A stretch of 64,000 nucleotides of DNA, taken from contig JAWXCB010000077.1 of NCBI GenBank assembly GCA_034440455.1, forward strand, positions 33,679 to 97,678. Reading direction: 5' to 3'. The position numbers were made by a program, and so were the translations under genes. This stretch comes from Chitinophagales bacterium (GTDB lineage: Bacteria; Bacteroidota; Bacteroidia; Chitinophagales; CAIOSU01). The notes beneath the pieces were generated by a model. It was not told where the DNA came from. It was given only the letters and a program-made list of their open reading frames with translations, and did not search any database. Shown here piece by piece: positions 30,487 to 61,908 of the stretch. Within the stretch, counting starts at the first letter, position 1. Each line of letters opens with the position of its first letter.

Positions 30487-30498
30487 TCTGCAATTTTT

Positions 30499-33970: not shown

Positions 33971-34103
33971 ATAATTCAAACAAACTTTTCTATGTGGCGG
34001 CAAGCGTTGCTTCCCAAAGCGGCAATGTTGTTTTCATGACCGGATTGTTGCCTATTTAATTATAAATTTGACAGATGCTAAACACGTAAACATTCTAAGT
34101 AAA

Positions 34104-37017: not shown

Positions 37018-37020
37018 CCT

Positions 37021-41646: not shown

Positions 41647-42570
41647 CTATGTTGTAAATATTTTTCTTATTCCTTTTTTTATCGCCCCTGCGGTGACAAA
41701 ACTTTCAAAAAAGCCTTTTTTATCTGTTGTTTCTTTCTTCGTTTTTTCAATCAGCTCAACAATTCGCTCCTTGCTTTCCGCAGGCACAGGATAGTCAAAT
41801 TCTTTTACCATGTCGCCAAACAACGGGCGCTCGCCACAGTTGTAATACCGTTGAAAAAAATCATCAGGCATCTCAAATTTTTCTATTTTATCAGTTTTGT
41901 CGTTCGCGTTTTTATGATAAAACATCAATTTGGCATCTTTTGGAGCTATTGCATAAGCCACAACTAACCTTTCTTTGTTTGTTAGGTTAGGTGAGGATCC
42001 ATGTATGACAGCATGATTCAGAATAAATGCTTGTCCGGCTTTCATGGGTGCGGTGAGCATATTCTCCCAGAGGAGCGCCTCATTACCCCTGTATGCCACC
42101 GGGATATTATTGCTTCGATAATAATCGAAAAAAAGATGGCTGCCCGGCAACACTCTTAAAGCTCCGTTTTCTTCCGAAGTATCCAGCATGGGCACCCATA
42201 TCGTAGCGGAATAAAATTTTGATTCATCAACGGTTGTCCAATCTTGGTGTACATTTACCTTTCCCTCCACCCCGGGAGATTTACAGAGAAACGTGCTGCC
42301 TAATTTTTTGTAGTGCTCAAATTTTTCATCTAAAGCCTTTTGAAGCACCTTTTCCGTGTGTTCAAATATTTCCCGCTTAAACTCTTCATCGGGATTAAAT
42401 GCAGCTGAATAAAATCCTTTGGGTAAATTCGGATGCAGCTCATAGAATTTTTCTGCGATTATTTGCGCATCTTTCGAGCTAATAAAATCAATGATCACGT
42501 AACCATCCCGATCAAAACGCGACTGGGTTTCTAAATCCTTAAATATCCTTGGTTTCATTTTTACAAACAA
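41647..42570 (-). CDS. PhyH-family Fe(II)/2OG dioxygenase paralog (13th gene)
   Basis: FDRDGYVIIDF; NVHQDWTTVDE; TIWVPMLDTSEENGALRVLPGSH; IHGSSPN. By eye it is closest to domain 1 of 12176-14107. Confidence 0.85.
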   Translation of the reverse strand: MFVKMKPRIFKDLETQSRFDRDGYVIIDFISSKDAQIIAEKFYELHPNLPKGFYSAAFNPDEEFKREIFEHTEKVLQKALDEKFEHYKKLGSTFLCKSPGVEGKVNVHQDWTTVDESKFYSATIWVPMLDTSEENGALRVLPGSHLFFDYYRSNNIPVAYRGNEALLWENMLTAPMKAGQAFILNHAVIHGSSPNLTNKERLVVAYAIAPKDAKLMFYHKNANDKTDKIEKFEMPDDFFQRYYNCGERPLFGDMVKEFDYPVPAESKERIVELIEKTKKETTDKKGFFESFVTAGAIKKGIRKIFTT

Positions 42571-42883: not shown

Positions 42884-44272
42884 ATGGAGAAAAAAACTAT
42901 CCTCCTTTTAAATCCTCCCGGAAAAAGCACCTATTTCAGGGATAACTATTGTTCTCCGGAATCTAAAGCCGGATATTATTGGCAACCTACCGATTTGCTG
43001 GTTCAAAGCGGCTATTTGAAAGAGGAATTTGACGTTGATATCCTGGATGCAATTGTAGAAAATAAAACGGATGAACACGTGCTTGATTTGGTGTTAAAAC
43101 GAAACTATTATTCTATTCTTTCTCTTACAGGAACAGCCTCCTGGGAAGAAGACTTTCATCTTCTTAAAAAAATAAAAGCCCTTAAGCCTGAAATTATTCT
43201 GGCTTTGTCCGGAAACCTGGCGCTTTTTGAGCATAAAGAACTTTTTAGAACTTGCGATTGGTTAGATATCGCTCTTCTCGATTACACTACGGATGATTAC
43301 GGCAAATTCCTGCAAGGAGAGAGAGAGGCGCTATTCAAAATAGTTTACCGCAAAGAAAATAATGTGGTGACAGTAATTGACCGTAAAGCGCCTAAAGAGT
43401 TTAGCTACCCTGTTCCGTTACATGAAAAATTTAAGAATCATCTCTATCACCTTCCCTTTGCTACCAAACACCCCGCTACCATAGTAATGGGAAGTGCCGG
43501 CTGCCCGCATAAGTGTGAGTTTTGTGTCGCCAGCGAAATAAAATATCGTTTCAGGAATACGGATAATCTTATTGCTGAATTGAAGGTACTGTATGAAATG
43601 GGAATTAAGGAAGTAGGGTTCAACGATTATATGTTTGAAGTTAACCATGAAAGGGCGATGGAAATTTGCAGCAGAATGATTACAGAAGAAATAAAATTAT
43701 CCTGGGGTTGTTCTTGTAGAGTTGACACATTAGATGAGCCTTTGCTAAGGCGAATGAAAGAAGCCGGTTGTCATACGATTCAAATGGGAATCGAAAGTTC
43801 CGTTCAGGGGGTATTAGAGGCGCAACGAAAAAATTCAACAGTAGAAAAGGCGAAAGAAACCATTGGACTATGCAATAAGGTAGGTATTCGTGCTTTTGGA
43901 AACTTTATTATAGGGCTGCCGGGCGAGAATGAAGAAAGTTTAAGTAACTTGGGGAAATATGCCCGGCAAATCGGGTGTACAAATGCAGTTTTTTCTACCT
44001 TGGTGCCTGATATGGGAACAACTCTCAGGAAAAAAGTTATTCAAGAAGGAAAGATTGAAAACCGGATGACGAAATTCAGCAGCACCGACAAATTCTTTCC
44101 ACAATCGTTAAGCGGCATAAAGACTGATAAATTATCTTCCATCAGAAGAAAGGTGATGCTGGAATTTTATTTTCATCCTTCTTTTATTTACAACAATTTT
44201 ATCCGGGCGAAAAGTTTTTATGAATTTAAGCGAAAGGTCGGTTACGGATTACAGGTCTTACGAAGGATATAG
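42884..44272 (+). CDS. B12-binding-domain (class B) radical SAM protein 1
   Basis: N-terminal Rossmann-like ILLLNPPG..., and CxxxCxxC as GSAGCPHKCEFCV, followed by a TIM-barrel-like region (IQMGIESS). Confidence 0.8.
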   Translation: MEKKTILLLNPPGKSTYFRDNYCSPESKAGYYWQPTDLLVQSGYLKEEFDVDILDAIVENKTDEHVLDLVLKRNYYSILSLTGTASWEEDFHLLKKIKALKPEIILALSGNLALFEHKELFRTCDWLDIALLDYTTDDYGKFLQGEREALFKIVYRKENNVVTVIDRKAPKEFSYPVPLHEKFKNHLYHLPFATKHPATIVMGSAGCPHKCEFCVASEIKYRFRNTDNLIAELKVLYEMGIKEVGFNDYMFEVNHERAMEICSRMITEEIKLSWGCSCRVDTLDEPLLRRMKEAGCHTIQMGIESSVQGVLEAQRKNSTVEKAKETIGLCNKVGIRAFGNFIIGLPGENEESLSNLGKYARQIGCTNAVFSTLVPDMGTTLRKKVIQEGKIENRMTKFSSTDKFFPQSLSGIKTDKLSSIRRKVMLEFYFHPSFIYNNFIRAKSFYEFKRKVGYGLQVLRRI

Positions 44273-44336
44273 CTTTATCAATTATTCCAATTCAGCACAG
44301 TGTTTTGCTGATTTTTACTCATAGCTTTAATATTAA

Positions 44337-45722
44337 ATGAAAATACTTTTCCTGAATCTTCCTTCAGATGTTCTTATAGTAAGACGATATATGTGCTCGT
44401 CTTTTGCAGAAGCATTCCTTTTCCCTCCGCACGATTTAATTTCGCTGGCAGGTGTTGCCCGAAGCATACCAGGTATGGAGGTTTCTTTCTTAGATGCTGT
44501 GGGGGAATGTAGTAATACGGATGATACAATTGCCTACATAAGAGAAAATTCACCCGATGTTTTAGTATCTATTATAAGCTTCGAGTTATATGACAAGGAT
44601 GTACTGATCGTAAGGCGACTGAAGGAAGAATTTCCCGAAATTTCTATCTTTCTCTTCGGACATTATCCTACACATTTTCCAAAAGAAACACTCGACTATT
44701 CAAATGCAGACCTGATTATGTTAGGGGAGCCTGACCTTATTTTTTCGCGCGTAATACAACAAATGAGCGCTAAAGAACCACTCAATGAAATTGGAGGAAT
44801 AGCTTACCGAACGGCTGACGGGCAAATCGCGGTTGGTAAGCAGGAACGCAGAGTGACCGCCTTCGATTCATTACCAATGCCCGCTTATGATTTATTAAAC
44901 AACAGCTTTTATCGTGAACCCTTCATGCCTCAGCCGTTTGGGTTGATACAATCCGCCCGCGGTTGCCCCTACCAATGCAACTATTGCGTTCATTCTTTCG
45001 GCACCAAACTAACGATGCTAAGCCCTGAAACTGTTTTTGAGCATATCCTGCAATTAAAATCCCAGCACAATATCCGTTCATTAAGATTTATTGACGATAC
45101 GTTTACAGTCATCCCTGCGCGTGTCATAGAAATTTGCAAAAAAATGATAGCCCACAAGTTAGACCTGAAGTGGACCTGCCTGGCGCGGGCTGATACATTG
45201 AACGAGGAAATGCTCGTTTGGATGAAACGCGCAGGTTGTGTGCGGTTAAACATTGGCATGGAATCGGGCAGTCAGAAAATACTTGATATTTTAAATAAAG
45301 GAACAACAGTTGAGAGTTCGCTCAGGCAATTACAATCTGTTAAAAAAACAGGTTTGGAAATGATGGGGTTTTTCTTAACCGGTATCCCTGGCGAAACGGA
45401 AGATGATATTAATGAAAGCATTCGTTTCGCACAGGATGCAGGATTCAATTATGTAGCCATTGATACGCTTAAAATTTATCCGGGTACTCCACTTTTTGAA
45501 AAATTCCGAGAACATATTGATTTTTCACTCGTACCGTACCGGAATCAATTCCGCGATGAAGATTTTAATCGGCAAACTGCGGCAAACAGAAAAAAATTCT
45601 TCCGAAATTTTTATTTTTCAATGAGTTACCTGTTCAATGCCCCGGCTAAGAATTTGATAAAATTTGAGCATGCTGGTATTATGTTAAATTATGTATGGCG
45701 CATGGCCAAGGCTGCTTCCTAA
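44337..45722 (+). CDS. B12-binding-domain (class B) radical SAM protein 2
   Basis: MKILFLNLPS...; SARGCPYQCNYCV; LNIGMESGS. Confidence 0.8.
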   Translation: MKILFLNLPSDVLIVRRYMCSSFAEAFLFPPHDLISLAGVARSIPGMEVSFLDAVGECSNTDDTIAYIRENSPDVLVSIISFELYDKDVLIVRRLKEEFPEISIFLFGHYPTHFPKETLDYSNADLIMLGEPDLIFSRVIQQMSAKEPLNEIGGIAYRTADGQIAVGKQERRVTAFDSLPMPAYDLLNNSFYREPFMPQPFGLIQSARGCPYQCNYCVHSFGTKLTMLSPETVFEHILQLKSQHNIRSLRFIDDTFTVIPARVIEICKKMIAHKLDLKWTCLARADTLNEEMLVWMKRAGCVRLNIGMESGSQKILDILNKGTTVESSLRQLQSVKKTGLEMMGFFLTGIPGETEDDINESIRFAQDAGFNYVAIDTLKIYPGTPLFEKFREHIDFSLVPYRNQFRDEDFNRQTAANRKKFFRNFYFSMSYLFNAPAKNLIKFEHAGIMLNYVWRMAKAAS

Positions 45723-45747
45723 AGAAAAAGTAATTAGGAAAACTTAT

Positions 45748-46734
45748 TTACAACCTTTTTTTATAATTGTAGGTATCGCCCCTCCAAGGCATAAATGTTT
45801 CAATTAAAAAGGGTTTTGTTGCAAGAAAGAAACAGGTGAACAGCATTTTTGATGAGATAAAGCCTGACTTGAATGTTGCAAATTTATAAGCAACTCCAAT
45901 GGTATCAGTTACATTTTCTACCTGATGCCACACTAAAGAAGGAAAATAGAGAACATCACCTGGATGGAGGAATACCTCATGGGGTTTGGCATGCTTGAGT
46001 AAAGGAAACTTGGGATCGTTAAGATTATAAGGATCGGCTTGGCTGAAAAAATAATTAAATCTGCGGGGTCGGGCGCCCAGAAATAAACGATGATTGGTCG
46101 GGTAAAAAATCCACCTTTTTGTTCCTTCTACCTGAACAAAAATGGTCATTGCATACCCGTCATGGATAGGTGTCATTGTGTTTTTACCACCCATGAAAAA
46201 ATAGTTCAACTCATTTTTTGCGCCTTTCGCCCTGAATTTTCTTAACCAATTATAATCAATATCTTCTCTCAAACCCGATTGTTCATCTACCATGCGTGAG
46301 AATTTTAAATATCTTTTTGAACCCTTTTTCATATTCTCTATATAATCGCGCAGTTTTACGACATCATAAGCCTGATCAGTATCTTTTATCAATCCTGGAT
46401 TGTTGACAAGAGTAACATCTTCATCACCATATTTCTGAGCAAAATATTCTAAAGTCCATTTTTTTTGGCAGGGCCATTCAGATGCCGCACCCCGAAATAC
46501 GATAGGAAAATGATCGTGCTTCACCGGATCGGTATATTCTCCCTTCTTGTATTCGATTATTTGAAACTCATCGGGCATCGGGTTGTTGGTTGCATATTCG
46601 TCTATCGCTTTGTAGAGTTTTTTTTCGGTATTGCCAAAAATTTCAGGATACCATTTTTCCCCAAAAATATGCTCTGCAAAGAATAGCGCGTTGTATGCCC
46701 ACCAGTGGCTAATTTTAACATTGTTTGGTTTCAT
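45748..46734 (-). CDS. JmjC / cupin-8 domain Fe(II)/2OG oxygenase-like protein
   Basis: FFMGGKNTMTPIHDGYAMTIFVQVEGTKRWIFYP (HxD) and GDVLYFPSLVWHQVENV (distal His). Confidence 0.7.
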   Translation of the reverse strand: MKPNNVKISHWWAYNALFFAEHIFGEKWYPEIFGNTEKKLYKAIDEYATNNPMPDEFQIIEYKKGEYTDPVKHDHFPIVFRGAASEWPCQKKWTLEYFAQKYGDEDVTLVNNPGLIKDTDQAYDVVKLRDYIENMKKGSKRYLKFSRMVDEQSGLREDIDYNWLRKFRAKGAKNELNYFFMGGKNTMTPIHDGYAMTIFVQVEGTKRWIFYPTNHRLFLGARPRRFNYFFSQADPYNLNDPKFPLLKHAKPHEVFLHPGDVLYFPSLVWHQVENVTDTIGVAYKFATFKSGFISSKMLFTCFFLATKPFLIETFMPWRGDTYNYKKRL

Positions 46735-46888
46735 GGTTAATTTTTCATTAGTTTGTTCTAAGTAGGATTCGGTGCAAACGCAACAATAATACCATTAATC
46801 AACTAATTTTTTTGTTGTCTGTTAAAGAAAATGTGGCTTTTGAGCTAAATGTTTTCTATCTTCATAGAATGTTATAGAAATTAATATT

Positions 46889-48484
46889 ATGAAAGTCTGT
46901 TTAATAAACCCGCCCCGTTTAATGAAACCCATGAGCGCCACCATGAAGCCCTCTCCACCGCTTGGGTTGGCGTTTATTGCAGGCGCTTTAAAGAGAGAAG
47001 GTCATTCCATTCAAGTGATTGACTCTCTCGCTGAAGCCCCTAATCAATATATTGAATTCAAAAATGACATTGTATTAAATGGTATCACCGAGGTTCAAAT
47101 AGCAAAGCTGATTCATCGCGACACGAAAGTGATTGGACTAAGTTTAATGTTTAGCGGCAATTGGCTTCATAATCGGATACTAATTGATTATTTAGGCAAC
47201 TGTTTTCCCGATGCTATTATTATAGGTGGTGGCGAGCACCTTACTGCTGCCCCTGAAATGTGTATTGAACAAACACGGCATTTGAAAGTTTGTATTTGTG
47301 GAGAAGGCGAAGAAACTGTAACAGATGTAGTTAAAGCGATAGAAAGCGGCAGCAATTTTTTGGAAATACCTGGAATCGTTTATCGCAATGAGGACAATGT
47401 AGCGGTGCGCACAAAGGCGAAAAACCGAATAAAAACAGTGGAGGAATTGGCATGGCCAGCTTGGGAGTTATTCCCGTTGGAGAAATACAAAAAAAATAGT
47501 ATCATCTATGGCGTGGATAGGGATGTTTATTCTGTACCATTAATGGCAACCCGGGGTTGTCCTTATGAATGCACTTTTTGCAGTAGTCCGCAAATGTGGG
47601 GTACACGTTATTTTATGCGCAGCCCTCAGGACGTGGTAAATGAAATGGATTATTTCCATGAAAAATTTAATGTCCGCAATTTTGATTTTTATGACCTCAC
47701 CGCCATTATTAAGAAAGCGTGGATCATTGAATTCGCACAAGAAGTAATTAAACGGAAACTTGACATTACATGGCAAATACCTGCCGGCACAAGGTCGGAA
47801 GTGATTGATCGCGAAGTGGCACATTCTCTTTATGCCTCCGGATGTCGCAATATTACGTATGCACCCGAAAGCGGCTCGGTAGAAATTTTGAAATTAATCA
47901 AGAAAAAAGTTTCACTCTCCAAGATGCTCCAATCCATTACCTACTCGAGCCAAGAGAAAATGAATATCAAGATAAATGTGATTATTGGTTTTCCGGGCGA
48001 GAAACATAAAAATATATGGCAGACGATGTGGTTTTTAATAAAGGCAAGCTGGCATGGCGTGAATGACATGGCTCCATCGGTATTTTCACCCTATCCAGGC
48101 AGCGCGCTTTTTGAAATGCTCCAAAAACAAGGTAGAATCAATATGAATAACGATGACTATTTTTACCAGATAATTTATGTTGATACCTTTTTTAATAATT
48201 TTTTCTACAATGACGACATTAACAAGCATGTTTTGCGGTTTTATCTGCTGAGCTACTTAGCAATTTTTTACATTTCCAACTTTATCTTTCATCCTGCCAG
48301 ATTGGTTAAAACAGTTCAAAATTTATGGACAAGCAAATATGACTCAAGGGCGGAAATGGCATTGGGGGAATTAATTAAACGATCAAAAATTAAAGTAAAA
48401 CAACGCTCTGAAATTCCGGTTGAGTCATTTGCCAAAACCAAGTTATTTGTTGAACAAGTGCCTGAAAAATTACCTATTTTTTAA
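46889..48484 (+). CDS. B12-binding-domain (class B) radical SAM protein 3 (long form)
   Basis: MKVCLINPP..PPLGLAFIAGAL; ATRGCPYECTFCS; ITYAPESGS; ~100-aa C-terminal extension. Confidence 0.8.
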   Translation: MKVCLINPPRLMKPMSATMKPSPPLGLAFIAGALKREGHSIQVIDSLAEAPNQYIEFKNDIVLNGITEVQIAKLIHRDTKVIGLSLMFSGNWLHNRILIDYLGNCFPDAIIIGGGEHLTAAPEMCIEQTRHLKVCICGEGEETVTDVVKAIESGSNFLEIPGIVYRNEDNVAVRTKAKNRIKTVEELAWPAWELFPLEKYKKNSIIYGVDRDVYSVPLMATRGCPYECTFCSSPQMWGTRYFMRSPQDVVNEMDYFHEKFNVRNFDFYDLTAIIKKAWIIEFAQEVIKRKLDITWQIPAGTRSEVIDREVAHSLYASGCRNITYAPESGSVEILKLIKKKVSLSKMLQSITYSSQEKMNIKINVIIGFPGEKHKNIWQTMWFLIKASWHGVNDMAPSVFSPYPGSALFEMLQKQGRINMNNDDYFYQIIYVDTFFNNFFYNDDINKHVLRFYLLSYLAIFYISNFIFHPARLVKTVQNLWTSKYDSRAEMALGELIKRSKIKVKQRSEIPVESFAKTKLFVEQVPEKLPIF

Positions 48485-48506
48485 TCCTTTCTAAATCAAG
48501 TATTAC

Positions 48507-49256
48507 GTGCAAGCAGAAGTGCCCCAATATTTCCTTAGAGAAGAAACCTATACCGGTAAACATGATTTTTTCTATAATTCGGAAAAATTTCCGGGATTAA
48601 AAAAAATAGAATCTAACTGGCATATCATTCGGGATGAAATTATGGGATTGATAACAGGAAAAGAAAAGATTGATGTGCAAAACCTGAATCCCCCTTATCT
48701 TTCTTCTCCCGATGCCTGGAAAAATATTTATTTCTACAACTTCGGTTGGAAAAAACATAAAAATTGTGACCGCTATCCCAAGACGCATGCCTTGCTCAAG
48801 TCAATTCCTAATATGATTTTTGGAGGAATTACGGTATTGGAACCAAGATCAAAAGTTTTACCCCACAACGGAGAAACCAATACAACAATAAGGTGTCATT
48901 TAGGTTTGAAAATTCCAAAGTCTTATCCGCATTGCGCGGTGCGTGTAGGAACTGAGGAGCGCGGATGGGAGGAAGGCAAAGTTCTGATGTTTAGTGACGC
49001 ACATTATCATTCTACGTGGAATGATAGCGATGAGCGGAGATTTGTTTTGGTCTTTGACATCGTGCGGGATGAATATGCACTTCAAAAGCACTTGGTATGC
49101 GCAAAGGTTCTTGGGGCTCTTTCCTTGAAATTATTTTATAGCAAAAAACCGGAACTAAAAAAAATACCCCTTTTGCTTCTTCGACCAGTTCACTTTTTTT
49201 TTACTTGTTTTTGGTACGTTTATCTGCCCTTACAAAACCGATTCAGACTGCCCTGA
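48507..49256 (+). CDS. aspartyl/asparaginyl beta-hydroxylase (AspH/LpxO) family oxygenase
   Basis: LPHNGETNTTIRCHLGLKIP and FSDAHYHSTWNDS fit the Asp_Arg_Hydrox pattern. The hydrophobic C-terminal tail may be a membrane anchor. GTG start. Confidence 0.65.
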   Translation: MQAEVPQYFLREETYTGKHDFFYNSEKFPGLKKIESNWHIIRDEIMGLITGKEKIDVQNLNPPYLSSPDAWKNIYFYNFGWKKHKNCDRYPKTHALLKSIPNMIFGGITVLEPRSKVLPHNGETNTTIRCHLGLKIPKSYPHCAVRVGTEERGWEEGKVLMFSDAHYHSTWNDSDERRFVLVFDIVRDEYALQKHLVCAKVLGALSLKLFYSKKPELKKIPLLLLRPVHFFFTCFWYVYLPLQNRFRLP

Positions 49257-49403
49257 AATATTTTATGAATATTGCTCAAGTGACTACGATTCGGAATCTA
49301 AACTGATACTGTGCGAAAATTTAAAAAAGGCTTCACCTTTATCTGAATATATTTTATCAAAACTTATTACAAATAAAATGTTTTGTTCTGTTTCATAATT
49401 AGA

Positions 49404-51086
49404 ATGATGCTAAATTTTTTTAAAAACCGTTGCGGAGAATTAACAATCACAGCAGTATCTTCATTTTTAACCCTCTTATTTTTTACACCCGTTACGGATG
49501 ATTATGGTTCACTCGGATGCAATTTGGCTGCCGGGCAGTTCAGCGACTACCCTTATCTGTATGAGTTTTATTTAATGCTTGTAGGAATGGGAGGCATGTA
49601 TCGGTGGCTCTATCATATCCTGCCAGATTACAACTGGATGGGAATTTCCTTTCTTGCTTTTAACTTATTATCCCTTTATCTCAGTCTGAGACTGATAAAA
49701 AACCTCATCCTAAAAGATAGCAAGAATGCTTATTTGCTCCGTATCATCCAGGTGTTATTTTCATTATTCTTCATTGAAAACATCGCGTCTATCACGCACA
49801 CGCGGGCTTCCATACTCTTCTGCGGCATCGGGTTGTTCAACATAGCTTTCACCGATGGGATTAGCCGAAAAGGGATATTGATAAATGCGGCAATCTTTGC
49901 GCTTGGAATGCTTATTCGTCCGGAGAGCAGCCTCGGCATGTTGCTGCTTGTTTCAACCGGTTACCTGATTTATCGCTTTGATATAAAGCACGTGGCGAAG
50001 CGGTTTTTACTTCCCTTTGTGGCAAGCGCAGCCTTGTTCTCCTATTTCACTATGGACTGGCTGCATACGGATATTTATGCAAAGAAAGTTGAACCTGAAA
50101 TCGAATACAAAATAATGGATAGGCGAATCGTTGATCTTTCATCTATGAAAACAGCAGAAGATTCGGTAAAATATCAGGCGGTAATGGCGGGAATGTGGTT
50201 TGACTTAAAAACTATCACCCCGGACTTTATCCGGAGCCTGCTACTACCAGGTATTAATCTCAGCGCGGCACATGCCGCGAGCGTATTTTTTCATAGTCTA
50301 TCTTATTATAAACATTATGTGTTTATTGCATGCCTTGTTATCGCCTTGATTTTTTTGTCTTTTTTTCAAACCAATTCTTTAAGAGGAATTTTTAGAATCG
50401 TGCTTTTTCAAATAAGCACGTTCCTTATTATCTATTTAGTGGATTTTAACGGACGTTTAATCACCGAAAGACACTTTCTTAATATTCAGTTTATTTCGCT
50501 TTTAATCACCTCCTTTTACTTTTTCAATCCAACAGTTCCATTTGATTTTTGGAAAGGACATAAAATTTTATTGTTAAGCTGTTTCTTATTTGTGCTGTTT
50601 GGAACAGGTGCAACGATTGTCAACTATAAGCAGCATAATGACTCGGTGGCACACAGCGTGAATTGCTATGAGTCGGCTATGCAGGAAATAGAAGACTCCT
50701 ATGCCGGACGGATTATAGTGGTCACCCTTAGCAACGCATACCTTTTAGATCATAACTTTTCTATCAAAAATAAAAACTACACCAAAAACACTTATTTACT
50801 TTTTGACGCTTTTACCTTCTCGCTACTTCCAAATTATATGAATTATTTAAGCAGCCAATGCCAGTGCAATCCTGCCGACCCGGTTGCTTTTTTAAACTGG
50901 AGTGTCGGGAAAAATGCTCTCTATCTGGCAGAAGCCGCGCGCTATAATTTAATAGAAAAGTACATGCGCTTGATTCACCATCAGAAAATTAAATTCATCT
51001 CCATCGGCAGTTTAGAGAAACCTGACTGCATCCAATCCACCGAAATGAAGGATTATGAATTAAGAAATATTGTTGTTGGGGATTAA
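49404..51086 (+). CDS. uncharacterised polytopic membrane protein, paralog C (CxC motif)
   Basis: The track ORF starts at TTG 49383. The first ATG is at 49404. First loop TDDYGS. C-terminal YLSSQCQCNPADPVAFLNW...YLAEAARYNLIEKYM. Confidence 0.6.
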   Translation: MMLNFFKNRCGELTITAVSSFLTLLFFTPVTDDYGSLGCNLAAGQFSDYPYLYEFYLMLVGMGGMYRWLYHILPDYNWMGISFLAFNLLSLYLSLRLIKNLILKDSKNAYLLRIIQVLFSLFFIENIASITHTRASILFCGIGLFNIAFTDGISRKGILINAAIFALGMLIRPESSLGMLLLVSTGYLIYRFDIKHVAKRFLLPFVASAALFSYFTMDWLHTDIYAKKVEPEIEYKIMDRRIVDLSSMKTAEDSVKYQAVMAGMWFDLKTITPDFIRSLLLPGINLSAAHAASVFFHSLSYYKHYVFIACLVIALIFLSFFQTNSLRGIFRIVLFQISTFLIIYLVDFNGRLITERHFLNIQFISLLITSFYFFNPTVPFDFWKGHKILLLSCFLFVLFGTGATIVNYKQHNDSVAHSVNCYESAMQEIEDSYAGRIIVVTLSNAYLLDHNFSIKNKNYTKNTYLLFDAFTFSLLPNYMNYLSSQCQCNPADPVAFLNWSVGKNALYLAEAARYNLIEKYMRLIHHQKIKFISIGSLEKPDCIQSTEMKDYELRNIVVGD

Positions 51087-51205
51087 CTATAAGCGGATAA
51101 ATTTTTTGTAAATTCATGGCCAAAACCTAATTTTTTCGCTATCTTTCTAACCAGAAATCGTTCTGAAAGCGAAAAAAAATAAAGAATCAACCAAGTAAAA
51201 GAAGC

Positions 51206-52807
51206 ATGAAAGTTACATTTGTGGCATTAGGATCGGAACAATTGGGCATCAGCCAACTGTCAGCTATTGCAAAACGTGATGGACATCAGGTAAGTCTCGC
51301 TTTTAGCGCATCGCTGTTTCATGACCGGTTCAATCTTGAGATTCCTTCTCTGGGAAATTTTTTTGACGACCGTAGCGAGGTAATAAATGCCATTAAACAG
51401 GAAAAACCCGATGTGCTCGCGTTCTCCTGCCTCACTTCAACTTACCAGTGGATGCTTGGTGTTGCAAAAGAAGCGAAGGAAATATTTCCAAATGTTAAAA
51501 CTGTTTTTGGCGGGGTTCACGTTTCCGCAGTACCCGACAGGACAATATTAAAGCCGGAAGTGGATTATGCGGTGGTAGGCGAAGGCGATATTGCATTCCC
51601 ATTAATTCTTCAAGCTATTGCAAATGGAGGACCGGGAACAGAACCTATTCCCAATACGAGATATAAAACCAAAAGCGGCATCGTTATCAAAGGCGTACAA
51701 CAAGGTTTCGTTCAGGATCTTGATTCATTGCCTTTTTATGACAAGGTAATTTGGGAAGACCATATCCGGATACAGGACATGTATCTCACCGTTGCTACCC
51801 GCGGGTGTCCATTTACATGTTCTTTTTGCTTTAATAATTTCTTTGCGCGCCTACCCGAAGAAAAGCGCGGCAAATACGTAAGACAGCGCAGCGTTGACAA
51901 CGTAATCCATGAACTTAAATGGGCAAAAAAGCGATATGACATACAGTGGGTGGATTTTCAGGATGATGTTTTTACGGTAAACAAAGGTTGGATAAAAGAA
52001 TTTACAGACCGGTATAAGAAAGAAGTAAATGTGCCGTTTCAATGCCTAATCCATCCCCAGTATTTTGATGATGAGATGGCAAGCTGGATGCGCGAAGCTG
52101 GGTGTGAATGGATACAAATAGGCATACAAACCATGGACGAAACTTTCAAACATGAAAACCTGCGCAGATATGAAGATTCCAACCATATTGTTCAGGCGCT
52201 GGAAGCGATGCACCGCTATGGCATTAAACCTAAAGCTGACCACATGCTGGGATTGCCGGGAGAACCAATCGGATCACAGGCAACCGCGTTGAAATTGTAT
52301 GCCGAACAAACGCCCAAGCGGATTCAGACATTTTGGACATGTTTTCTTCCCGGCACCGATATGATGAAGCAAGCAGTACAACAAGGAATATTGAACGAAG
52401 AGCAAGCGGAAAGATTGAACGAGGGAATTGATTTTTACTTTTTTCGCAACAAGGAGAATATTAAAAATCCCGAACTTGTAAAGATCTATCAAAGCTATGA
52501 ATTTCTGTATAAAGTGATGCCTGCTGTGCCTGCTTTTTTAAAACAAAGGTTAAAACCTGAGCATGTTAGCTGGATGCCTAATATGGCAACAAGGGTTTTG
52601 GCTTCTGTCTTTGATGTTTATACAGGGTTTAGGCATGGCAACCCGGAATTTGCTGCTTATGCCAAACATTATTTATTTCACCTCTATTCTTTTTTCAGAA
52701 GAAAAATGGGGTTCAGCAGACCAAAGGCTACTGTTCCAAATCTGAGCGTAGAAAACATACCCGCCATTTTAACGCCAAATCCGGAAGTGGCGATGTCGGC
52801 AGCATAG
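51206..52807 (+). CDS. B12-binding-domain (class B) radical SAM protein 4 (long form)
   Basis: MKVTFVALGSEQLGISQLSA...; ATRGCPFTCSFCF; IQIGIQT. Confidence 0.8.
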   Translation: MKVTFVALGSEQLGISQLSAIAKRDGHQVSLAFSASLFHDRFNLEIPSLGNFFDDRSEVINAIKQEKPDVLAFSCLTSTYQWMLGVAKEAKEIFPNVKTVFGGVHVSAVPDRTILKPEVDYAVVGEGDIAFPLILQAIANGGPGTEPIPNTRYKTKSGIVIKGVQQGFVQDLDSLPFYDKVIWEDHIRIQDMYLTVATRGCPFTCSFCFNNFFARLPEEKRGKYVRQRSVDNVIHELKWAKKRYDIQWVDFQDDVFTVNKGWIKEFTDRYKKEVNVPFQCLIHPQYFDDEMASWMREAGCEWIQIGIQTMDETFKHENLRRYEDSNHIVQALEAMHRYGIKPKADHMLGLPGEPIGSQATALKLYAEQTPKRIQTFWTCFLPGTDMMKQAVQQGILNEEQAERLNEGIDFYFFRNKENIKNPELVKIYQSYEFLYKVMPAVPAFLKQRLKPEHVSWMPNMATRVLASVFDVYTGFRHGNPEFAAYAKHYLFHLYSFFRRKMGFSRPKATVPNLSVENIPAILTPNPEVAMSAA

Positions 52808-52843: not shown

Positions 52844-53533
52844 TCACGCTTGAAACACTCTGACGATGCGGTAGAGCGACCATGTTTCTTTCATTGCCTT
52901 TGCAATAGTTACCCACGACCCTCCTTTTGACATTCCTGATTTCCTCGGGTGATAGACGGAAAGTGTTTCAATCGGTTTCACTCCTGATTTTATCAACTTT
53001 GCGCAGATTTCACTTTCAATAATTGAACTGTTTAATTGAGGATTCACTTTTCTTAACTGGTCATTCCGGTAAACTTTTATCCAATTTACATCCCTTAATT
53101 TAATGCCCAGCAGAAACCGGTTAAACAGTTTATTTAATAAACTTAAATTTTTTCGATACCTGCTGTATTCATGATTTTCTCTGTAGAATGAGAAAAAATA
53201 TCCTGAATTGAATTCCTTTACAGCCTGCAATTCATCCGGGTTAAACTGCCCGTCACTGGGAACCGCGCACACATATTCATAGCGCGCTTGCACGTAGCCT
53301 GTTTTTAAAGCTGCGCCTATCCCTAAATTTATCTTGTGCTCAATAATCCGGATTTGGGGTATTTCCTGCTTTAGCTTTTCGCAAATCTCAGAAGTACTGT
53401 CGGTACTCCCGTCATTCACAATAATGATTTCATACTGCGCGGCATTTTTACTCAAAAAATCGAAGCATTTATAAGCAGTCTCCGCCAGTGTGCCTGCTTC
53501 GTTGTAGCAAAATAGAATGATAGACCAGTTCAA
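52844..53533 (-). CDS. family 2 glycosyltransferase, DPM1/polyprenyl-phosphate sugar synthase-like
   Basis: WSIILFCYNEAGTL, IIIVNDGSTDST and AVPSDGQF. Lies 21 nt downstream of the GT-C/TPR gene on the same strand. Confidence 0.7.
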   Translation of the reverse strand: MNWSIILFCYNEAGTLAETAYKCFDFLSKNAAQYEIIIVNDGSTDSTSEICEKLKQEIPQIRIIEHKINLGIGAALKTGYVQARYEYVCAVPSDGQFNPDELQAVKEFNSGYFFSFYRENHEYSRYRKNLSLLNKLFNRFLLGIKLRDVNWIKVYRNDQLRKVNPQLNSSIIESEICAKLIKSGVKPIETLSVYHPRKSGMSKGGSWVTIAKAMKETWSLYRIVRVFQA

Positions 53534-53554: not shown

Positions 53555-56476
53555 TTATTTTACACCGGCAGGGGTTGTTTGAAATAATGCGTTTTTAAGC
53601 AAGTTCACATCGGGATGATTCGGGGCAATCGTTTCCGCGCGTTGAAGATAAAACATTGCGCTATCAATCCTGCCGAGGTCAGCATAGATTCGACTTAGGA
53701 AAATGAACGGCTCCGGCTGTTGCGGATAAAAAGCTGCCGCTTTTTTCATCGGAATCAGCGCTCGTGGAAAGTCCTGAAGCCGGGCATAACAGAAACTCAG
53801 ATTCATCAAAGCATCCAGATTTGCCGGGTTTACTTTTAAGTATTTATGATAATAAGGCAACGCTTCCCTGTAATCTCCCCTCCCGGCTTTAATCAAACCC
53901 ACTTGATAGAAAGGCTCACTAAAAGTACTGTCAATCTTAATTACTTGTAGGAAATGTTTTTCCGCTTTATCCGGTTTTCCCAGCATCATTCTTACTCTGC
54001 CAAGGTCATATTGCGCGTTAAAGAATTCTGAGTAGATGTTCACAGCCTTTTCATAATGCAGTTCTGCTTCTTCAAGGAGCGTCTTCCGCGTTAACGCATT
54101 CGTTTGTAATAATGCCGACTGCACAAGATGGGTTGCCAGTAAGTTCTGCGCTTGCGCAGATTCTTCAAGGTGCCTGATGTCCTGCCGCATGAGCTTTAGA
54201 TAATCATGCCACTGAGAATTTCGGGCGATTGTAACACCGGAATAAAAGACCAGGATTGCAAAGGCAGGATATTTGAAATACCGGGGCAAAGAGAAAAAAG
54301 AAACGATACTATCTTTCTCAACAGAATATTTGGCAAGCCTGCACAGCGCCACCGCCAGCAGAATACAAAACCCGATTGAAGGAATGAAAAGATAACGGTC
54401 AGCCATCATTCCTGAAACAGGCGCAATAATATTGGCAAGTGGCAGAAGTGTTATGAAATAGATCAACAAACCTGCGCTTAAAAGGCGATTTTTATTTACA
54501 CTCCACAATGCGAGCATGATTAGAGCTAAAACAATAGAAAGTATGAATAAAGCAACCGGCTTGCTAATCTCTGTCTTATCAATGCATTTATAGCCATAAT
54601 AAAATGACATTGGGTATGGAATCAATGTGAGCCTAAGATAATTGCCTGTAACCATCATCCCTGTTCCCAACTTTTCACTCATTGACGATTCTGAGCCGAC
54701 AACTGATTCAACATATTCAACAGGGCGGTAAGCGTCTTCTTCTCCAACTCCCTGAATAGGGTTGACATATTTATAGGTAACAACTTCATGAGTCGTTTCA
54801 GTTAATGTTCCTTTAAATTGATGTAATTCTTCTTTATATTGATGTAATTCTTCCTTAAATTGATATGATAATCTGATATTAAGGTGGAACAATTCTTCCT
54901 TGACAAATTTGGCATGATTAGACGCATACTCGTGATACATTAATGTTGATGAAAAAATAAACACTGTAGCTAAAAGAGTAATTGTCTTTGTTCGCTGCGG
55001 GAAATATAATATCAGGAATATTATCAGAAAATAAATCCCCATAAAATAGACATTCATGAAATTTTCCGTATGGAATAGTAATTCAGAAAATGTCGTCATA
55101 GCCGAGAATAAGAAAGGTATTGAAGCAAACAATATTTTGCGGCTTGGCATAAGAATCATTCCTGCTATGCCTCCAAGCAGGATTAAATTCCAAATAACTT
55201 TTGAAAACTCTAACCCTTGCATCCCTCCCGTCTCTTTATCAAAATACGCCATAGTGAGCGCGATAAGAATACAACTTAATGCTTCAAGAGGCTTTATTTC
55301 ATTTTTTCGTAAAAAAGTAAATATGTACAGAAGGAAAAAAGCATTAAACACATCACTTTGGCTAAATAACGATGCTATGTAAATAGCAATCGCTGCGCTT
55401 GCCCATGGAAAAAAATAGCTCCATCCTTTAAGTGGAGAAAAAAGAAATAAAGGGATTAGCATGGATAAGGGGAGCAGATAAAAAGAAGAACCAAGCGCAA
55501 GCGTCAAAGCGGTTAAAACCACTAATCCTATCACCGAAGCGATAAAGACTATTGGCGCAGATAACAAGCTGACTTTAAGCTGCCTTACACGAGGAGGCGT
55601 TTTAGCTTTAGTGGGAATCCCCTTCCAAAACAGGAAAAAATTCTTTGAAAACTTGATTTTTTTAAAAAAAGTCTGATAACGAATCTCATAGAATACCGCG
55701 CTAAATGACATTACTCCAGCAATAATGCCGATGCGGTCAACAAGGAATGTTCGCTGAATAAGTGGAAAAATCACAGCGCATAAGAGAATTGATATCGTTA
55801 TTGCTTTTGCAATTGACACTTCCCTGAACAGGAAAAGCAACAACGGGATAATGATTGCAAAGCTGATTATCGTCTGCTTTGAAAGCATCCCGGCAAGAAA
55901 GCATAATGCTCCGCCAAGTAAAAACAGCAAATTCCTTCTGTCAACGTAATGAATAAAAAAAAACAAGGATGCCAGCCCTCCTGTCAGCGCCAGAATTTCA
56001 TCTCTGTTTTTCAGGCTTGCGACAACTTCTGTATGCAACGGAAAGGCTGCAAAAAACAGGGTGATTAAGAATGGAAGCAACCTACTATAATCCTTCAACA
56101 GAAGATTGAGCACCAAAAGCAATAACGCGCAAAGGAGGGAATAAAGCAGCACATTAATAAAGTGCCCGACATGCGGGTTATCTCCAAACAAAGAATGCTC
56201 TATCGCAAAAGTGGTGAGTACTACAGGACGGTATTCATAGGAATATCCCTGCGTATCTTCATAATAATTCGACTTGAAAATTTCCGGTATTGCAGCTATC
56301 CCTTTCGATGTAAGCCGGTGCAGTTTAGATGCGCTCACAGAGGTCACCATTTCATCATCGAGATTATACTTATTGAAAATCGTGTTTCCATACAGAAGGA
56401 AACTAAAGACAGAAACGATGAGATATGGATTCCACCCGTTAAGAAATCCTCCTTCCTTAAAACCAATCTTTTTCAT
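53555..56476 (-). CDS. PMT/TMTC-like GT-C membrane glycosyltransferase with C-terminal TPR repeats
   Basis: 973 aa. First-loop acidic motif GNTIFNKYNLDDEMV, many TM helices, and a C-terminal ~250 aa of TPR repeats (YEKAVNIYSEFFNAQYDLG..., ALPYYHKYLKVNPANLDAL...). Confidence 0.65.
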   Translation of the reverse strand: MKKIGFKEGGFLNGWNPYLIVSVFSFLLYGNTIFNKYNLDDEMVTSVSASKLHRLTSKGIAAIPEIFKSNYYEDTQGYSYEYRPVVLTTFAIEHSLFGDNPHVGHFINVLLYSLLCALLLLVLNLLLKDYSRLLPFLITLFFAAFPLHTEVVASLKNRDEILALTGGLASLFFFIHYVDRRNLLFLLGGALCFLAGMLSKQTIISFAIIIPLLLFLFREVSIAKAITISILLCAVIFPLIQRTFLVDRIGIIAGVMSFSAVFYEIRYQTFFKKIKFSKNFFLFWKGIPTKAKTPPRVRQLKVSLLSAPIVFIASVIGLVVLTALTLALGSSFYLLPLSMLIPLFLFSPLKGWSYFFPWASAAIAIYIASLFSQSDVFNAFFLLYIFTFLRKNEIKPLEALSCILIALTMAYFDKETGGMQGLEFSKVIWNLILLGGIAGMILMPSRKILFASIPFLFSAMTTFSELLFHTENFMNVYFMGIYFLIIFLILYFPQRTKTITLLATVFIFSSTLMYHEYASNHAKFVKEELFHLNIRLSYQFKEELHQYKEELHQFKGTLTETTHEVVTYKYVNPIQGVGEEDAYRPVEYVESVVGSESSMSEKLGTGMMVTGNYLRLTLIPYPMSFYYGYKCIDKTEISKPVALFILSIVLALIMLALWSVNKNRLLSAGLLIYFITLLPLANIIAPVSGMMADRYLFIPSIGFCILLAVALCRLAKYSVEKDSIVSFFSLPRYFKYPAFAILVFYSGVTIARNSQWHDYLKLMRQDIRHLEESAQAQNLLATHLVQSALLQTNALTRKTLLEEAELHYEKAVNIYSEFFNAQYDLGRVRMMLGKPDKAEKHFLQVIKIDSTFSEPFYQVGLIKAGRGDYREALPYYHKYLKVNPANLDALMNLSFCYARLQDFPRALIPMKKAAAFYPQQPEPFIFLSRIYADLGRIDSAMFYLQRAETIAPNHPDVNLLKNALFQTTPAGVK
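54817..54879. repeat. in-frame 21-nt tandem repeat (two near-identical units and one degenerate unit) inside the GT-C/TPR gene
   Basis: ATTGATGTAATTCTTCTTTAT / ATTGATGTAATTCTTCCTTAA / ATTGATATGATAATCTGATAT. On the minus strand this encodes RLSYQF-KEELHQY-KEELHQF. Confidence 0.8.
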
Positions 56477-61896: not shown

Positions 61897-61908
61897 ATTA
61901 ATTATCGT

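Follow-up and report, generated by a model that had tools for sequence, protein, structure and literature searches.

The window analysed here is a stretch of 64,000 nucleotides from an uncultured Chitinophagales bacterium of a lake (GenBank assembly GCA_034440455.1, contig JAWXCB010000077.1, positions 33,679 to 97,678 of the forward strand), within which a block of seven open reading frames (ORFs) at positions 42884-52807 combines genes for radical S-adenosylmethionine (SAM) enzymes with genes for iron- and 2-oxoglutarate-dependent (Fe/2OG) oxygenases of the JmjC and AspH types. All ORFs of this block were found where a sequence-only reading of the window had placed them, and Pfam returned the domains which that reading had named; the block, regarded there as a unit of its own, is instead part of a super-locus measuring 58 kb or more, which extends from approximately 10 kb to beyond 64 kb of the window and also contains sugar-transfer and export genes. 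Pfam and NCBIfam scans were performed on every ORF of at least 100 amino acids (aa) between 10 and 64 kb of the window, and the window was compared with related metagenomic loci and contigs, labelled L002 to L038. Near-identical contigs have been recovered from several metagenomes, and the JmjC, AspH and rS4 proteins carry generic annotation only (NCBI accessions MDZ4846250, MDZ4846252 and MDZ4846254, respectively, with RlmD being MDZ4846211). The features of the block, together with a fifth radical SAM gene of the same type located to its right, are as follows:

42884-44272, + strand: rS1, radical SAM enzyme with an HpnJ-like N-terminal Rossmann domain, accessory paralog (Radical_SAM 1.5e-18)
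44337-45722, + strand: rS2, radical SAM enzyme with an HpnJ/BchE-like N-terminal domain, core paralog (Radical_SAM 2.2e-22)
45748-46734, - strand: JmjC/Cupin_8 Fe/2OG enzyme with a predicted 2-His site and a hydrophobic C-terminal tail (Cupin_8 4.7e-34, JmjC_2 4e-10)
46889-48484, + strand: rS3, class-B radical SAM enzyme, conserved partner of the JmjC gene (Radical_SAM 8e-16, B12-binding 6e-13)
48507-49256, + strand: AspH/OlsC/LpxO-family Fe/2OG hydroxylase with a hydrophobic C-terminal tail (Asp_Arg_Hydrox PF05118 1.1e-40)
49383-51086, + strand: memC, predicted GT-C-fold glycosyltransferase of a family without a Pfam model (AlphaFold2 and Foldseek)
51206-52807, + strand: rS4, class-B radical SAM enzyme, most conserved of the five (Radical_SAM 8e-22, B12-binding 5e-21)
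58404-59888, - strand: rS5, class-B radical SAM enzyme, accessory paralog (Radical_SAM 2e-15, B12-binding 4e-09)

The five radical SAM proteins had been described as diverged from one another and as retaining the CxxxCxxC signature, and both statements hold: pairwise identity is 21-27%, and each protein possesses exactly one such motif (at residues 207, 210, 224, 201 and 238 of rS1 to rS5, respectively). They are old, diverged paralogs. All contain the radical SAM core (PF04055), but the N-terminal B12-binding/Rossmann-like domain that had been ascribed to all five is recognised at the curated threshold in three of them only, since rS3, rS4 and rS5 (49, 75 and 37 bits) exceed the PF02310 gathering score of 32.1 bits, whereas rS1 and rS2 (20.4 and 25 bits) do not, yet align near full length (from residues 31 and 2, respectively) to the HpnJ and BchE models. 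The cobalamin-binding motif DxHxxG is present in none of the five; solved class-B radical SAM enzymes bind cobalamin in the base-off form without this motif, which is thus not expected. The best match of rS2 in the PDB is AprD4 (6fd2, 5.5e-22), while the closest solved relatives of the radical SAM enzymes are AprD4, OxsB, TokK, CysS and MgmA (9ccb), all of them distant. In both AprD4 and ArsL the Rossmann domain is present and cobalamin is not bound (review PMC12931638); AprD4 being the best solved relative of rS1 as well as of rS2, these two may lack cobalamin altogether.

None of the enzymes of the block reaches a curated equivalog cut-off, and no assignment to a known housekeeping pathway was obtained. 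For the five radical SAM proteins the best NCBIfam scores are 112-188 bits, to be read against cut-offs of 250-775 bits, and those of BchE, PhpK/Sden_1168, GenK-like, KedN5, HpnR, BzaD, MgmA and ApyD are all missed (at most 188 bits). The best model is HpnJ for rS1 (157 bits, cut-off 578) and rS2 (188 bits, cut-off 577.6, followed by BchE at 145 bits), the Sden_1168 P-methyltransferase for rS3 (168 bits, cut-off 575), and ApyD for rS5 (130 bits, followed by rSAM_ocin_1 at 112 bits, both below cut-off). Homologs of rS4 number 802 at E<1e-20, of which the best 120 are all 53-100% identical. The co-occurrence of O2-dependent and O2-sensitive chemistry in one locus, which had been considered striking, is less so, because class-B radical SAM enzymes and oxygenases occur together in several known pathways: such enzymes stand beside Fe/2OG or different non-haem iron oxygenases in the biosynthesis of thienamycin (ThnK/L/P with ThnG/Q), fosfomycin (Fom3 with HppE) and polytheonamide (PoyB/C with PoyI), and aminoglycoside pathways use GenK, AprD4 and the PhyH-type KanJ.

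The JmjC gene is transcribed divergently from rS3, from which it is separated by 154 bp. Its earlier assignment to the JmjC domain was correct, although the loss of the carboxylate iron ligand had been overlooked. The protein is related to JMJD5 (profile comparison, 4e-27), its closest solved relatives, JMJD5 and FIH, being distant, and does not retain the HxD/E...H triad: its site reads H191-D-G193 ... H270, where G193, aligned without gaps to Asp323 of JMJD5, occupies the position of the carboxylate ligand. In an alignment of 23 JmjC orthologs this column contains G in 12 sequences, A in seven, D in three and E in one. When 1.84 billion cluster representatives were searched exhaustively with a profile, 209 proteins were retrieved at E<1e-30; 88 of the best 150 have A in this column, 19 have G, 24 have E and 11 have D, so that Ala or Gly is present in 107 of the 150 (approximately 70%). 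The halogenase-type pattern HxA/G...H is thus found in the JmjC protein of the window and, by alignment, also in a WelO5-like enzyme of the super-locus (see below). AspH hydroxylates with the same 2-His site, and this site alone cannot separate halogenation from hydroxylation. To our knowledge, neither a halogenase with a JmjC/Cupin_8 fold nor a 2-His JmjC enzyme has been described, and literature searches returned no report of a JmjC-fold halogenase. Loss of the carboxylate is a defining trait of Fe/2OG halogenases (PMC2938197). JmjC orthologs terminate in a tail of the form 'SSKML..LFFLATKP.LI', an extension that is absent from the catalytic cores of the human enzymes.

The second oxygenase of the block, AspH, starts 22 bp past the end of rS3, and the genes rS3, AspH, memC and rS4 follow each other with intergenic gaps of 22-126 bp. 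It is a distant relative of human ASPH (5e-23); its 'RCH-L-G' aligns to the human 'RMH679-L-G681', and the site H679/G681/H725 is kept, this being the natural H-x-G of the family. Its scores against the OlsC (110 bits, cut-off 450) and LpxO (76 bits, cut-off 500) models remain below equivalog level. The AspH orthologs share a tail '...LP...F...W..YLP.Q.RF.FL', which is absent from the human catalytic core. The conserved hydrophobic and aromatic tails of the AspH and JmjC orthologs suggest work at the membrane surface, and these C-terminal extensions are probably membrane anchors.

The membrane protein encoded between AspH and rS4, which had been listed as one of three membrane paralogs, is indeed a membrane protein with two paralogs (memA and memB), but it is not anonymous, since its model adopts a GT-C fold. 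None of the three has a Pfam match even at E=5, and only 22 homologs of memC were found among 5.8 billion sequences. An AlphaFold2 model of memC, built with 16 homologs (predicted local distance difference test score, pLDDT, 84; predicted TM-score, pTM, 0.85), was compared with the PDB by means of Foldseek, the top matches being ArnT (5.8e-4), ALG12, PglB, AftA, DPY19, AftD and EmbC; the best matches are all GT-C glycosyltransferases, at modest TM-scores of 0.39-0.45. Residues D39 and D40, located after the first helix, are invariant in the 16 homologs and fit the acidic motif that is a hallmark of GT-C enzymes. On the strength of this model, memA, memB and memC represent an unannotated family of predicted GT-C-fold glycosyltransferases. 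The sole hint at sequence level came from the NCBIfam scan (LA_3751/LA_3752, 5e-4). Sequence kinship between memC and PMT_2 proteins was considered and rejected following comparison by hhalign with PMT_2 proteins (probability 0.3%), and no relationship between memC and a 973-aa membrane protein of the window was detected by the same method. The genes that, in addition to memC, are associated with sugar transfer are as follows:

27446-29152, - strand: memA, paralog of memC (26% identical to memB and memC)
32327-34003, - strand: memB, paralog of memC (26% identical to memA and memC)
40898-41599, - strand: GT2_233, soluble ArnC/Dpm1-like putative polyprenyl-phosphate sugar synthase (Glycos_transf_2 1e-13)
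52844-53533, - strand: GT2_229, the other small GT2, a probable polyprenyl-phosphate sugar synthase (Glycos_transf_2 7.9e-24)
53555-56476, - strand: 973-aa polytopic membrane protein with a C-terminal TPR region (TPR families at residues 770-960)

The two small GT2 proteins resemble ArnC, dolichyl-phosphate-hexose transferase, PpgS and AglJ at the family level only (79 bits, cut-off 529). The best NCBIfam matches of GT2_233 are the undecaprenyl-phosphate-Ara4FN transferase ArnC (3e-22), PgfS, dolichyl-phosphate-hexose transferase and PpgS, while GT2_229 has an ArnC-type match (2.4e-10) among others, and orthologs with 50-53% identity in L009, L017, L018 and L029. Polyprenyl-phosphate sugars, the products of the enzymes so resembled, are the donors taken by GT-C enzymes. 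The 973-aa protein contains approximately 13 hydrophobic segments, its N-terminal part has no Pfam match, and D40 and D41 after its first helix are invariant in five homologs, in line with which it may be a further GT-C enzyme of the TMTC/PMT-like type. Homologs of 20-35% identity occur in L007, L015, L028, L031 and L035. A sequence link between this protein and PMT_2 was sought with hhalign, which gave nothing; an analogous acidic pair (D13 E14) is present in the PMT_2 proteins of L024.

These genes are embedded in the super-locus with the following additional features:

10180-11034, + strand: ABC-2 (Wzm-type) permease, first gene of a PhyH operon (ABC2_membrane 1.5e-12)
11244-26124, both strands: 12 PhyH-family dioxygenase genes, two of them double-domain (PhyH 1e-17 to 1e-44)
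18668-19966, - strand: Wzt/TagH-type ABC ATPase (ABC_tran 1.3e-19)
24442-25314, + strand: WelO5-family Fe/2OG enzyme with a halogenase-type H-x-G site (WelO5 5.4e-52)
29200-31827, - strand: pair of DUF1501 (exported, sulfatase/phosphatase superfamily) and DUF1800 genes (Pfam; signal-like N-terminus)
34068-35741, + strand: arylsulfotransferase-like protein (ASST), membrane-anchored (Arylsulfotran_2 2e-10)
35734-38601, - strand: second DUF1501/DUF1800 pair with a Tat- and lipobox-like signal (Pfam; N-terminus 'MNRRKFIRNSGIAALLPFVLNALQAC')
39707-40867, - strand: GDSL-family esterase/acyltransferase with an N-terminal membrane anchor (Lipase_GDSL_2 1.2e-11)
41647-42570, - strand: thirteenth PhyH dioxygenase, divergent from rS1 (PhyH 3.7e-21, HQD...H triad kept)
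57242-58111, + strand: 289-aa multi-pass membrane protein, speculatively a candidate flippase (no Pfam or NCBIfam match)
60068-60394: unannotated membrane protein, flippase candidate
60454-63345, - strand: two tandem N-terminal-twitch radical SAM genes (NF033640 N_Twi_rSAM 162 and 158 bits, cut-off 170)

From left to right, the ABC-2 permease is followed by the array of 12 PhyH genes, which is interrupted by the ABC ATPase and the WelO5-family gene; then come a gene for a pentahaem cytochrome, memA, the first DUF1501/DUF1800 pair, memB, the arylsulfotransferase-like gene, the second DUF1501/DUF1800 pair, the GDSL gene, GT2_233 and the thirteenth PhyH gene, after which the block begins. To the right of the block are located GT2_229, the gene of the 973-aa protein, the unannotated membrane proteins, rS5 and the two N-terminal-twitch radical SAM genes, and a contig that reaches past the window adds a further GDSL gene and two GT32 genes. 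In total, the super-locus encodes seven radical SAM enzymes (five of the B12 type and the two of the N-terminal-twitch type) and 16 Fe/2OG oxygenases, 13 of which belong to the PhyH family. A sequence scan detected neither a signal peptide nor a transmembrane helix in any of the 16 oxygenases or the seven radical SAM enzymes, which indicates that they are cytoplasmic, whereas proteins of the DUF1501, cytochrome, GDSL and arylsulfotransferase types are exported or anchored. The first gene is immediately preceded by dnaA (8141-9607) and the genes of tRNA-Ser(GCT) and tRNA-Pro(TGG) at 9654-9884, and the super-locus thus adjoins the region of a putative replication origin. Its G+C content (0.37-0.44) is slightly below that of the sequence to the left (0.42-0.46). 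An RNA scan of the window yielded the two tRNAs only and no cobalamin riboswitch, and a scan for sigma-70 promoters and terminators returned counts equal to the shuffled expectation and was thus uninformative.

The two ABC genes form, by profile match, a pair of the Wzm/Wzt type, that is, of the type that exports glycopolymers; the best NCBIfam matches of the ATPase are TagH (1.7e-51) and Wzt/RfbE (4e-43), below equivalog cut-offs, and NodI and DrrA are also matched. The 12 PhyH genes are arranged in two convergent operons between the halves of this exporter, with the WelO5-like gene at one end (10180-26124). The order ABC2, PhyH, double PhyH, PhyH, PhyH is kept in L019 in the same orientation and in L009 in reverse, and L017 and L018 keep the PhyH order on contigs that end before the position of ABC2. 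The thirteenth PhyH gene has a 70%-identical ortholog beside GT2 and ABC2 genes in L007. PhyH genes are also carried by a wzm/wzt lipopolysaccharide cassette of Xanthomonas. A role of the PhyH paralogs as halogenases was considered and rejected: in an alignment of all 13, HxD...H is retained in most and replaced by H-Q-N in one, and they therefore look like hydroxylases. In the WelO5-like protein, by contrast, the segment 'VHCGN' aligns to 'VHVGN' of solved WelO5-type halogenases, which makes this protein a candidate free-substrate halogenase. It has orthologs of 54-72% identity in L014, L020 and L028, and the WelO5-like, PhyH, cytochrome and memA genes travel together in related loci. The pentahaem c-type cytochrome, a lipoprotein with five CxxCH motifs whose gene is convergent with memA (26267-29152 region), lies beside memA in L013 and L014 and beside the WelO5-like gene in L020.

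With regard to the remaining genes, DUF1501/DUF1800 pairs recur beside mem paralogs in L009, L011, L014, L016, L029 and L031, and a literature search for the two domains in combination gave no direct match. GDSL orthologs (56-58% identity) are located beside DUF1800/DUF1501 and memC in L009 and L016, and orthologs of the arylsulfotransferase-like protein (44-61% identity) in L014, L015, L021 and L031. No recognisable homolog of a GtrA- or ArnE/F-type flippase was found in the window; a homolog of the 289-aa protein (30% identity) is encoded immediately upstream of memA in L013, and some related loci contain LPG_synthase_TM genes. The two tandem twitch radical SAM proteins are 50% identical to each other and carry the auxiliary-cluster (twitch/SPASM-like) domain N-terminally instead of C-terminally, the Pfam SPASM match lying N-terminal to Radical_SAM.

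The gene families of the block recur together, in shuffled order, in more than 20 related metagenomic loci as annotated by BLAST, from lakes, bogs, sludge and a hot spring, with orthologs of the block genes being 45-87% identical. Such orthology and recurrent clustering indicate that the arrangement is not due to chance. When species-representative genomes were scanned with the memC alignment, 11 loci were identified, all in metagenome-assembled genomes (MAGs) of uncultured Bacteroidota type, one of which is labelled Balneolaceae. The JmjC gene is associated with a class-B radical SAM gene, which is located at most 2.5 kb away in 12 of 16 distinct loci; in 11 of the 16 it adjoins as an rS3 ortholog (35-87% identity), and two of the four loci that have no class-B radical SAM gene nearby are contigs of approximately 2 kb. 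In L037 a 31%-identical relative of rS1 adjoins a JmjC gene. The AspH gene directly adjoins memC in eight of approximately 15 loci (among them L007, L011, L015, L019, L020, L028 and fosmid C54fos44), rS4 is directly upstream of memC in L013, L014, L017 and L018, and rS2 orthologs (43-65% identity) were found in L020, L021, L022, L027 and L028. Orthologs of memA (40-53% identity) are positioned beside the cytochrome gene in L013 and L014, and L009 and L028 have memA without the cytochrome; a 52%-identical ortholog of memB adjoins the arylsulfotransferase gene in L021, and a protein beside the radical SAM block of L022 is a weak relative of the mem family (hhalign probability 69%).

Particular information is provided by L024, a high-GC MAG labelled Binatia, in which a module of the order JmjC (HxA), rS3-type radical SAM, PMT_2, PMT_2, ArnC-like GT2, NDP-sugar (nucleoside diphosphate sugar) dehydratase/epimerase, Cupin_8 and PMT_2 is found. 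In this second lineage the pair formed by JmjC and the radical SAM enzyme is thus associated with GT-C enzymes recognisable by sequence and with a putative polyprenyl-phosphate sugar synthase. Genes for sugar-nucleotide metabolism are also present in other relatives, including those of FdtA, DegT, an epimerase and a carbamoyltransferase, as well as GFO_IDH_MocA genes that abut or overlap the small GT2 genes. Duplications of rS3-type and JmjC genes were observed in several loci, with two rS3 and two JmjC genes in L015 (188-5725), three rS3 genes in L029 (3786-9725) and L022 (12024-16763), and three JmjC genes in L038, which suggests a lineage-specific expansion of tailoring steps.

Variation was also encountered between close strains. 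An additional AspH paralog of 260 aa is present between rS2 and JmjC in L002 (6357-7139) and L005 (605-1387), an interval that in the window measures 25 bp only (45722-45748). In a close strain with the extra gene, rS2 is 93%, JmjC 96% and the TPR protein 90% identical to the window, as compared to 99-100% for their neighbours. Because the extra AspH gene sits between the less-identical rS2 and JmjC genes, this interval appears to be a recombination hotspot within the locus. Mosaic gain and loss with locally low identity are usual in loci for surface structures, and the strain-level mosaicism seen here fits such a locus.

The sequence-only reading had found no substrate gene evident, and this was borne out by a comparison of all ORFs of 20-149 aa outside the long genes in 13 loci, in which neither a conserved small ORF nor a peptide precursor was detected, the single two-member match being spurious. 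A 33-aa ORF upstream of rS1 has no notable features, and no conserved non-enzymatic protein is common to the loci. Domains of the RRE/PqqD, leader peptidase, YcaO, LanB/C and NHLP/Nif11 types were absent from the Pfam scans.

Taken together, these data are best accommodated, at a probability which we put at roughly 45%, by the block being the core, devoted to radical tailoring, of a large glycoconjugate locus of the cell envelope, where a lipid-linked sugar or glycan would be tailored in the cytoplasm in association with the membrane, then flipped and transferred to the envelope by GT-C enzymes. According to this proposal, the two small soluble GT2 proteins would attach a sugar to polyprenyl phosphate on the cytoplasmic side of the membrane, in the manner of ArnC and Dpm1, which they resemble at family level. 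The lipid-linked sugar or glycan may then be acted upon by rS2, rS3 and rS4 (with rS1 and rS5 as accessories), the 2-His JmjC protein and AspH, whereby unactivated carbons would be functionalised through C-methylation or carbon-skeleton rearrangement by the radical SAM enzymes, and through hydroxylation, possibly halogenation, by the Fe/2OG enzymes. Following flipping of the product, memA, memB and memC, and probably the 973-aa TPR protein, would transfer it to an envelope acceptor in the periplasm, an activity suggested by the modelled fold. The PhyH array and the Wzm/Wzt-type exporter may make or decorate an exported polymer, and the exported ASST, DUF1501/DUF1800 and GDSL proteins could finish this polymer outside the cytoplasm by adding sulfate, acyl and other groups. 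The enzyme families concerned are known to act on sugars: AprD4 deoxygenates an aminoglycoside sugar and the PhyH-type KanJ also acts on an aminoglycoside sugar. Carbohydrates are methylated by B12-dependent radical SAM enzymes such as GenK and MoeK5 (PMC12931638), and HpnJ and Cds have been proposed to contract lipid-linked sugars to cyclitols (PMC13459092).

Several points weigh against this proposal. All radical SAM enzymes and oxygenases of the locus stay below every curated family cut-off. Proteins are the substrates of the nearest characterised relatives of both the JmjC protein (JMJD5, FIH and JMJD6) and AspH (human ASPH), and lipid acyl chains are those of OlsC and LpxO, the AspH-family models with the best scores; we know of no Fe/2OG oxygenase that hydroxylates a polyprenyl-linked sugar. 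The window contains no initiating phosphoglycosyltransferase, polymerase or recognisable flippase. The assignment of the 973-aa protein to the GT-C enzymes rests on topology and one motif, its single-sequence AlphaFold2 model (pLDDT 41) being unusable. Finally, linkage of the genes is a sign of a shared pathway and is silent on the molecule touched by the cytoplasmic enzymes.

This last point leaves room for substrates other than a sugar, of which the hydrocarbon moiety of a membrane lipid (e.g. lipid A or an aminolipid, or else an alkyl or isoprenoid chain), methylated and hydroxylated prior to glycosylation by GT-C enzymes in the periplasm in the manner of ArnT, is an unlikely candidate but one to be taken seriously. 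OlsC (the acyl 2-hydroxylase of ornithine lipids, 110 bits) and LpxO (76 bits) are the best curated models for AspH, although both scores amount to approximately a fifth of the cut-offs. PhyH is a family of acyl-CoA hydroxylases, the top structural match of memC is ArnT, which modifies lipid A, both oxygenases bear hydrophobic tails, and lipid-modifying radical SAM enzymes constitute an established class (PMC13459092). FA_desaturase and LPG_synthase_TM genes are found in related loci, but neither there nor in the window were genes for the synthesis of lipid A, aminolipids, fatty acids or terpenes observed; moreover, the compact L024 module has sugar-handling partners only, and genes for sugar-nucleotide enzymes abut or overlap those of the GT2 proteins. 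Readings in terms of hopanoids, branched glycerol dialkyl glycerol tetraethers (brGDGTs) or ladderane lipids were set aside, as the models concerned score weakly and their partner genes were not observed. Literature searches for the gene combination, and for radical SAM methylases linked to brGDGTs in Bacteroidota, gave no direct match.

The GT-C fold of memC points away from a plain lipid-chain substrate and equally from a proteusin-like peptide, and the context of GT-C, GT2 and exporter genes, together with the missing precursor, renders both analogies less likely. Methylation and hydroxylation of the side chains of such a peptide, or of an exported protein, followed by O-glycosylation by PMT/TMTC-like GT-C enzymes with the TPR region holding the protein, is accordingly regarded as improbable. 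The nearest relatives JMJD5, FIH, JMJD6, human ASPH and MgmA (PDB 9ccb) act on proteins, the best models of rS5 are ApyD and rSAM_ocin_1, the 973-aa protein possesses a TPR domain, and neighbourhoods with JmjC, beta-hydroxylase, PhyH and sulfotransferase genes have been read as modifying peptides or surface proteins (Iyer et al. 2010, PMC2938197); yet the small-ORF comparison across 13 loci, the domain scans between 10 and 64 kb and the search for a shared non-enzymatic protein all failed to reveal a substrate or peptide machinery, and the exporter is of the Wzm/Wzt type and not a peptide exporter. This interpretation now rests solely on the activities of the nearest characterised JmjC and AspH relatives. 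Slightly harder still to credit is a small-molecule product, e.g. a halogenated, hydroxylated and sulfated glycolipid or pseudo-oligosaccharide, exported by the ABC-2 pump, with the GT-C genes being unrelated neighbours or serving self-resistance. The mix of class-B radical SAM, AprD4-like, PhyH/KanJ-like, GFO_IDH_MocA and DegT proteins resembles the tailoring sets of aminoglycosides and moenomycin, relatives of the WelO5-type H-x-G enzyme act on free small molecules, and ABC-2 pumps (cf. the NodI and DrrA matches) export Nod factors and daunorubicin. Against this, no enzyme that would form a scaffold (polyketide synthase, nonribosomal peptide synthetase, terpene or cyclitol synthase) was observed, in many genomes the GT-C genes lie interspersed among tailoring genes at short gaps, and the locus is conserved across a whole lineage, whereas specialised-metabolite clusters are usually patchy. 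A catabolic island was also set aside, because GT-C enzymes, like polyprenyl-phosphate sugar synthases and a Wzm/Wzt exporter, serve biosynthesis.

Returning to tailoring of a lipid-linked sugar, a bolder version of this proposal may be formulated, which is offered as a long shot: the JmjC-fold enzymes of the locus would belong to a large undescribed clade with Ala or Gly in place of the carboxylate ligand, and could represent the first radical halogenases of the JmjC type, or else 2-His oxidases whose reaction ends differently, acting on polyprenyl-linked sugars with B12-type radical SAM enzymes as obligate partners, such that halogenated, C-methylated or carbocyclic sugars are installed on the envelope by GT-C enzymes. 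If true, the pairing of a 2-His JmjC protein with a B12-dependent radical SAM enzyme would constitute a new enzyme class and a new route to exotic bacterial surface sugars. More generally, if the proposed tailoring of a lipid-linked sugar or glycan is correct, then bacteria can edit unactivated carbons of lipid-linked sugars by radical SAM and Fe/2OG chemistry before export, a step that is part of no described envelope glycosylation pathway. For enzyme discovery, the locus offers at least seven radical SAM and 16 Fe/2OG enzymes without characterised close relatives, an unannotated GT-C family and a carboxylate-less JmjC clade of at least 100 clusters at 50% identity, with the JmjC-rS3-AspH-memC-rS4 core and the nine-gene L024 module heading the shortlist of genes. 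The location of DUF1501/DUF1800 pairs adjacent to GT-C genes may furthermore offer a clue to what these two widespread domains do. The organisms that carry the locus are uncultured Chitinophagales widespread in lakes and bogs, and their surface chemistry is likely to influence grazing, attack by phages and the fate of organic matter.

The closest known systems include Arn (ArnC/ArnD/ArnEF/ArnT), Gtr (GtrA/GtrB/GtrC) and RgtE with RgtA-D of Rhizobium, which glycosylate in the periplasm from lipid-linked monosaccharides and with which the locus shares a small ArnC/Dpm1/PpgS-like GT2 and several paralogous GT-C-fold transferases. In these, ArnD provides an example of tailoring at the stage of the polyprenyl-phosphate sugar, and RgtA, RgtB and RgtC of three paralogous GT-C enzymes in one system. 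None of them, however, includes radical SAM or Fe/2OG enzymes, and in the present locus none of the Pfam GT-C families takes in memA, memB or memC, which have no PMT_2 profile similarity, nor is a flippase of the GtrA/ArnEF type recognisable. MoeK5 is known to methylate a sugar linked to a lipid phosphate. GenK/GenD1, Fms7, MoeK5, AprD4 and the PhyH-type KanJ are members of the same families that act on carbohydrate C-H bonds (PMC12931638); the similarity is at superfamily level, no aminocyclitol or moenomycin scaffold genes are present, and the context here is one of envelope glycosylation. A combination of GT2 and radical SAM enzymes acting on the headgroup of a lipid-linked sugar is provided by HpnI/HpnK/HpnJ and the calditol synthase Cds (PMC13459092), HpnJ being the best model for rS1 and rS2. 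These two score 157 and 188 bits, respectively, against a cut-off of 578, no hopanoid gene is present in the window or the related loci, and the window differs in having five B12-type paralogs along with oxygenases and GT-C enzymes.

As regards the oxygenases, polytheonamide-type proteusin clusters contain several class-B radical SAM C-methyltransferases beside an Fe/2OG hydroxylase, but the precursor, NHLP/Nif11 leader, PoyD-type epimerase and protease that accompany them were not found in the window scans. The halogenases SyrB2, WelO5 and BesD and the 2-His AspH resemble the enzymes of the locus in the Gly or Ala that replaces the carboxylate in the JmjC and WelO5-like proteins, and in the H-x-G of the AspH homolog. 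Co-clusters of JmjC, AspH-type beta-hydroxylase and PhyH genes linked to sulfotransferases, as well as tandem arrays of up to 10 dioxygenases in cyanophage Syn9, were described by Iyer, Abhiman, de Souza and Aravind in 2010 (PMC2938197), and the window is similar to these neighbourhoods in its co-clustered distant dioxygenases and its sulfotransferase link. In those neighbourhoods, however, the dioxygenases are accompanied by peptide synthetases, tryptophan halogenases, TonB receptors or collagen-like substrates and not by class-B radical SAM or GT-C enzymes, and HxD/E is retained in the JmjC members (PMC2938197), whereas the window has class-B radical SAM, GT-C and GT2 enzymes, a Wzm/Wzt exporter, a 2-His JmjC protein and no peptide machinery. 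In relation to all of these systems, the new element would be an unprecedented set of radical tailoring enzymes within a lipid-linked-sugar/GT-C envelope glycosylation locus of an otherwise known type.

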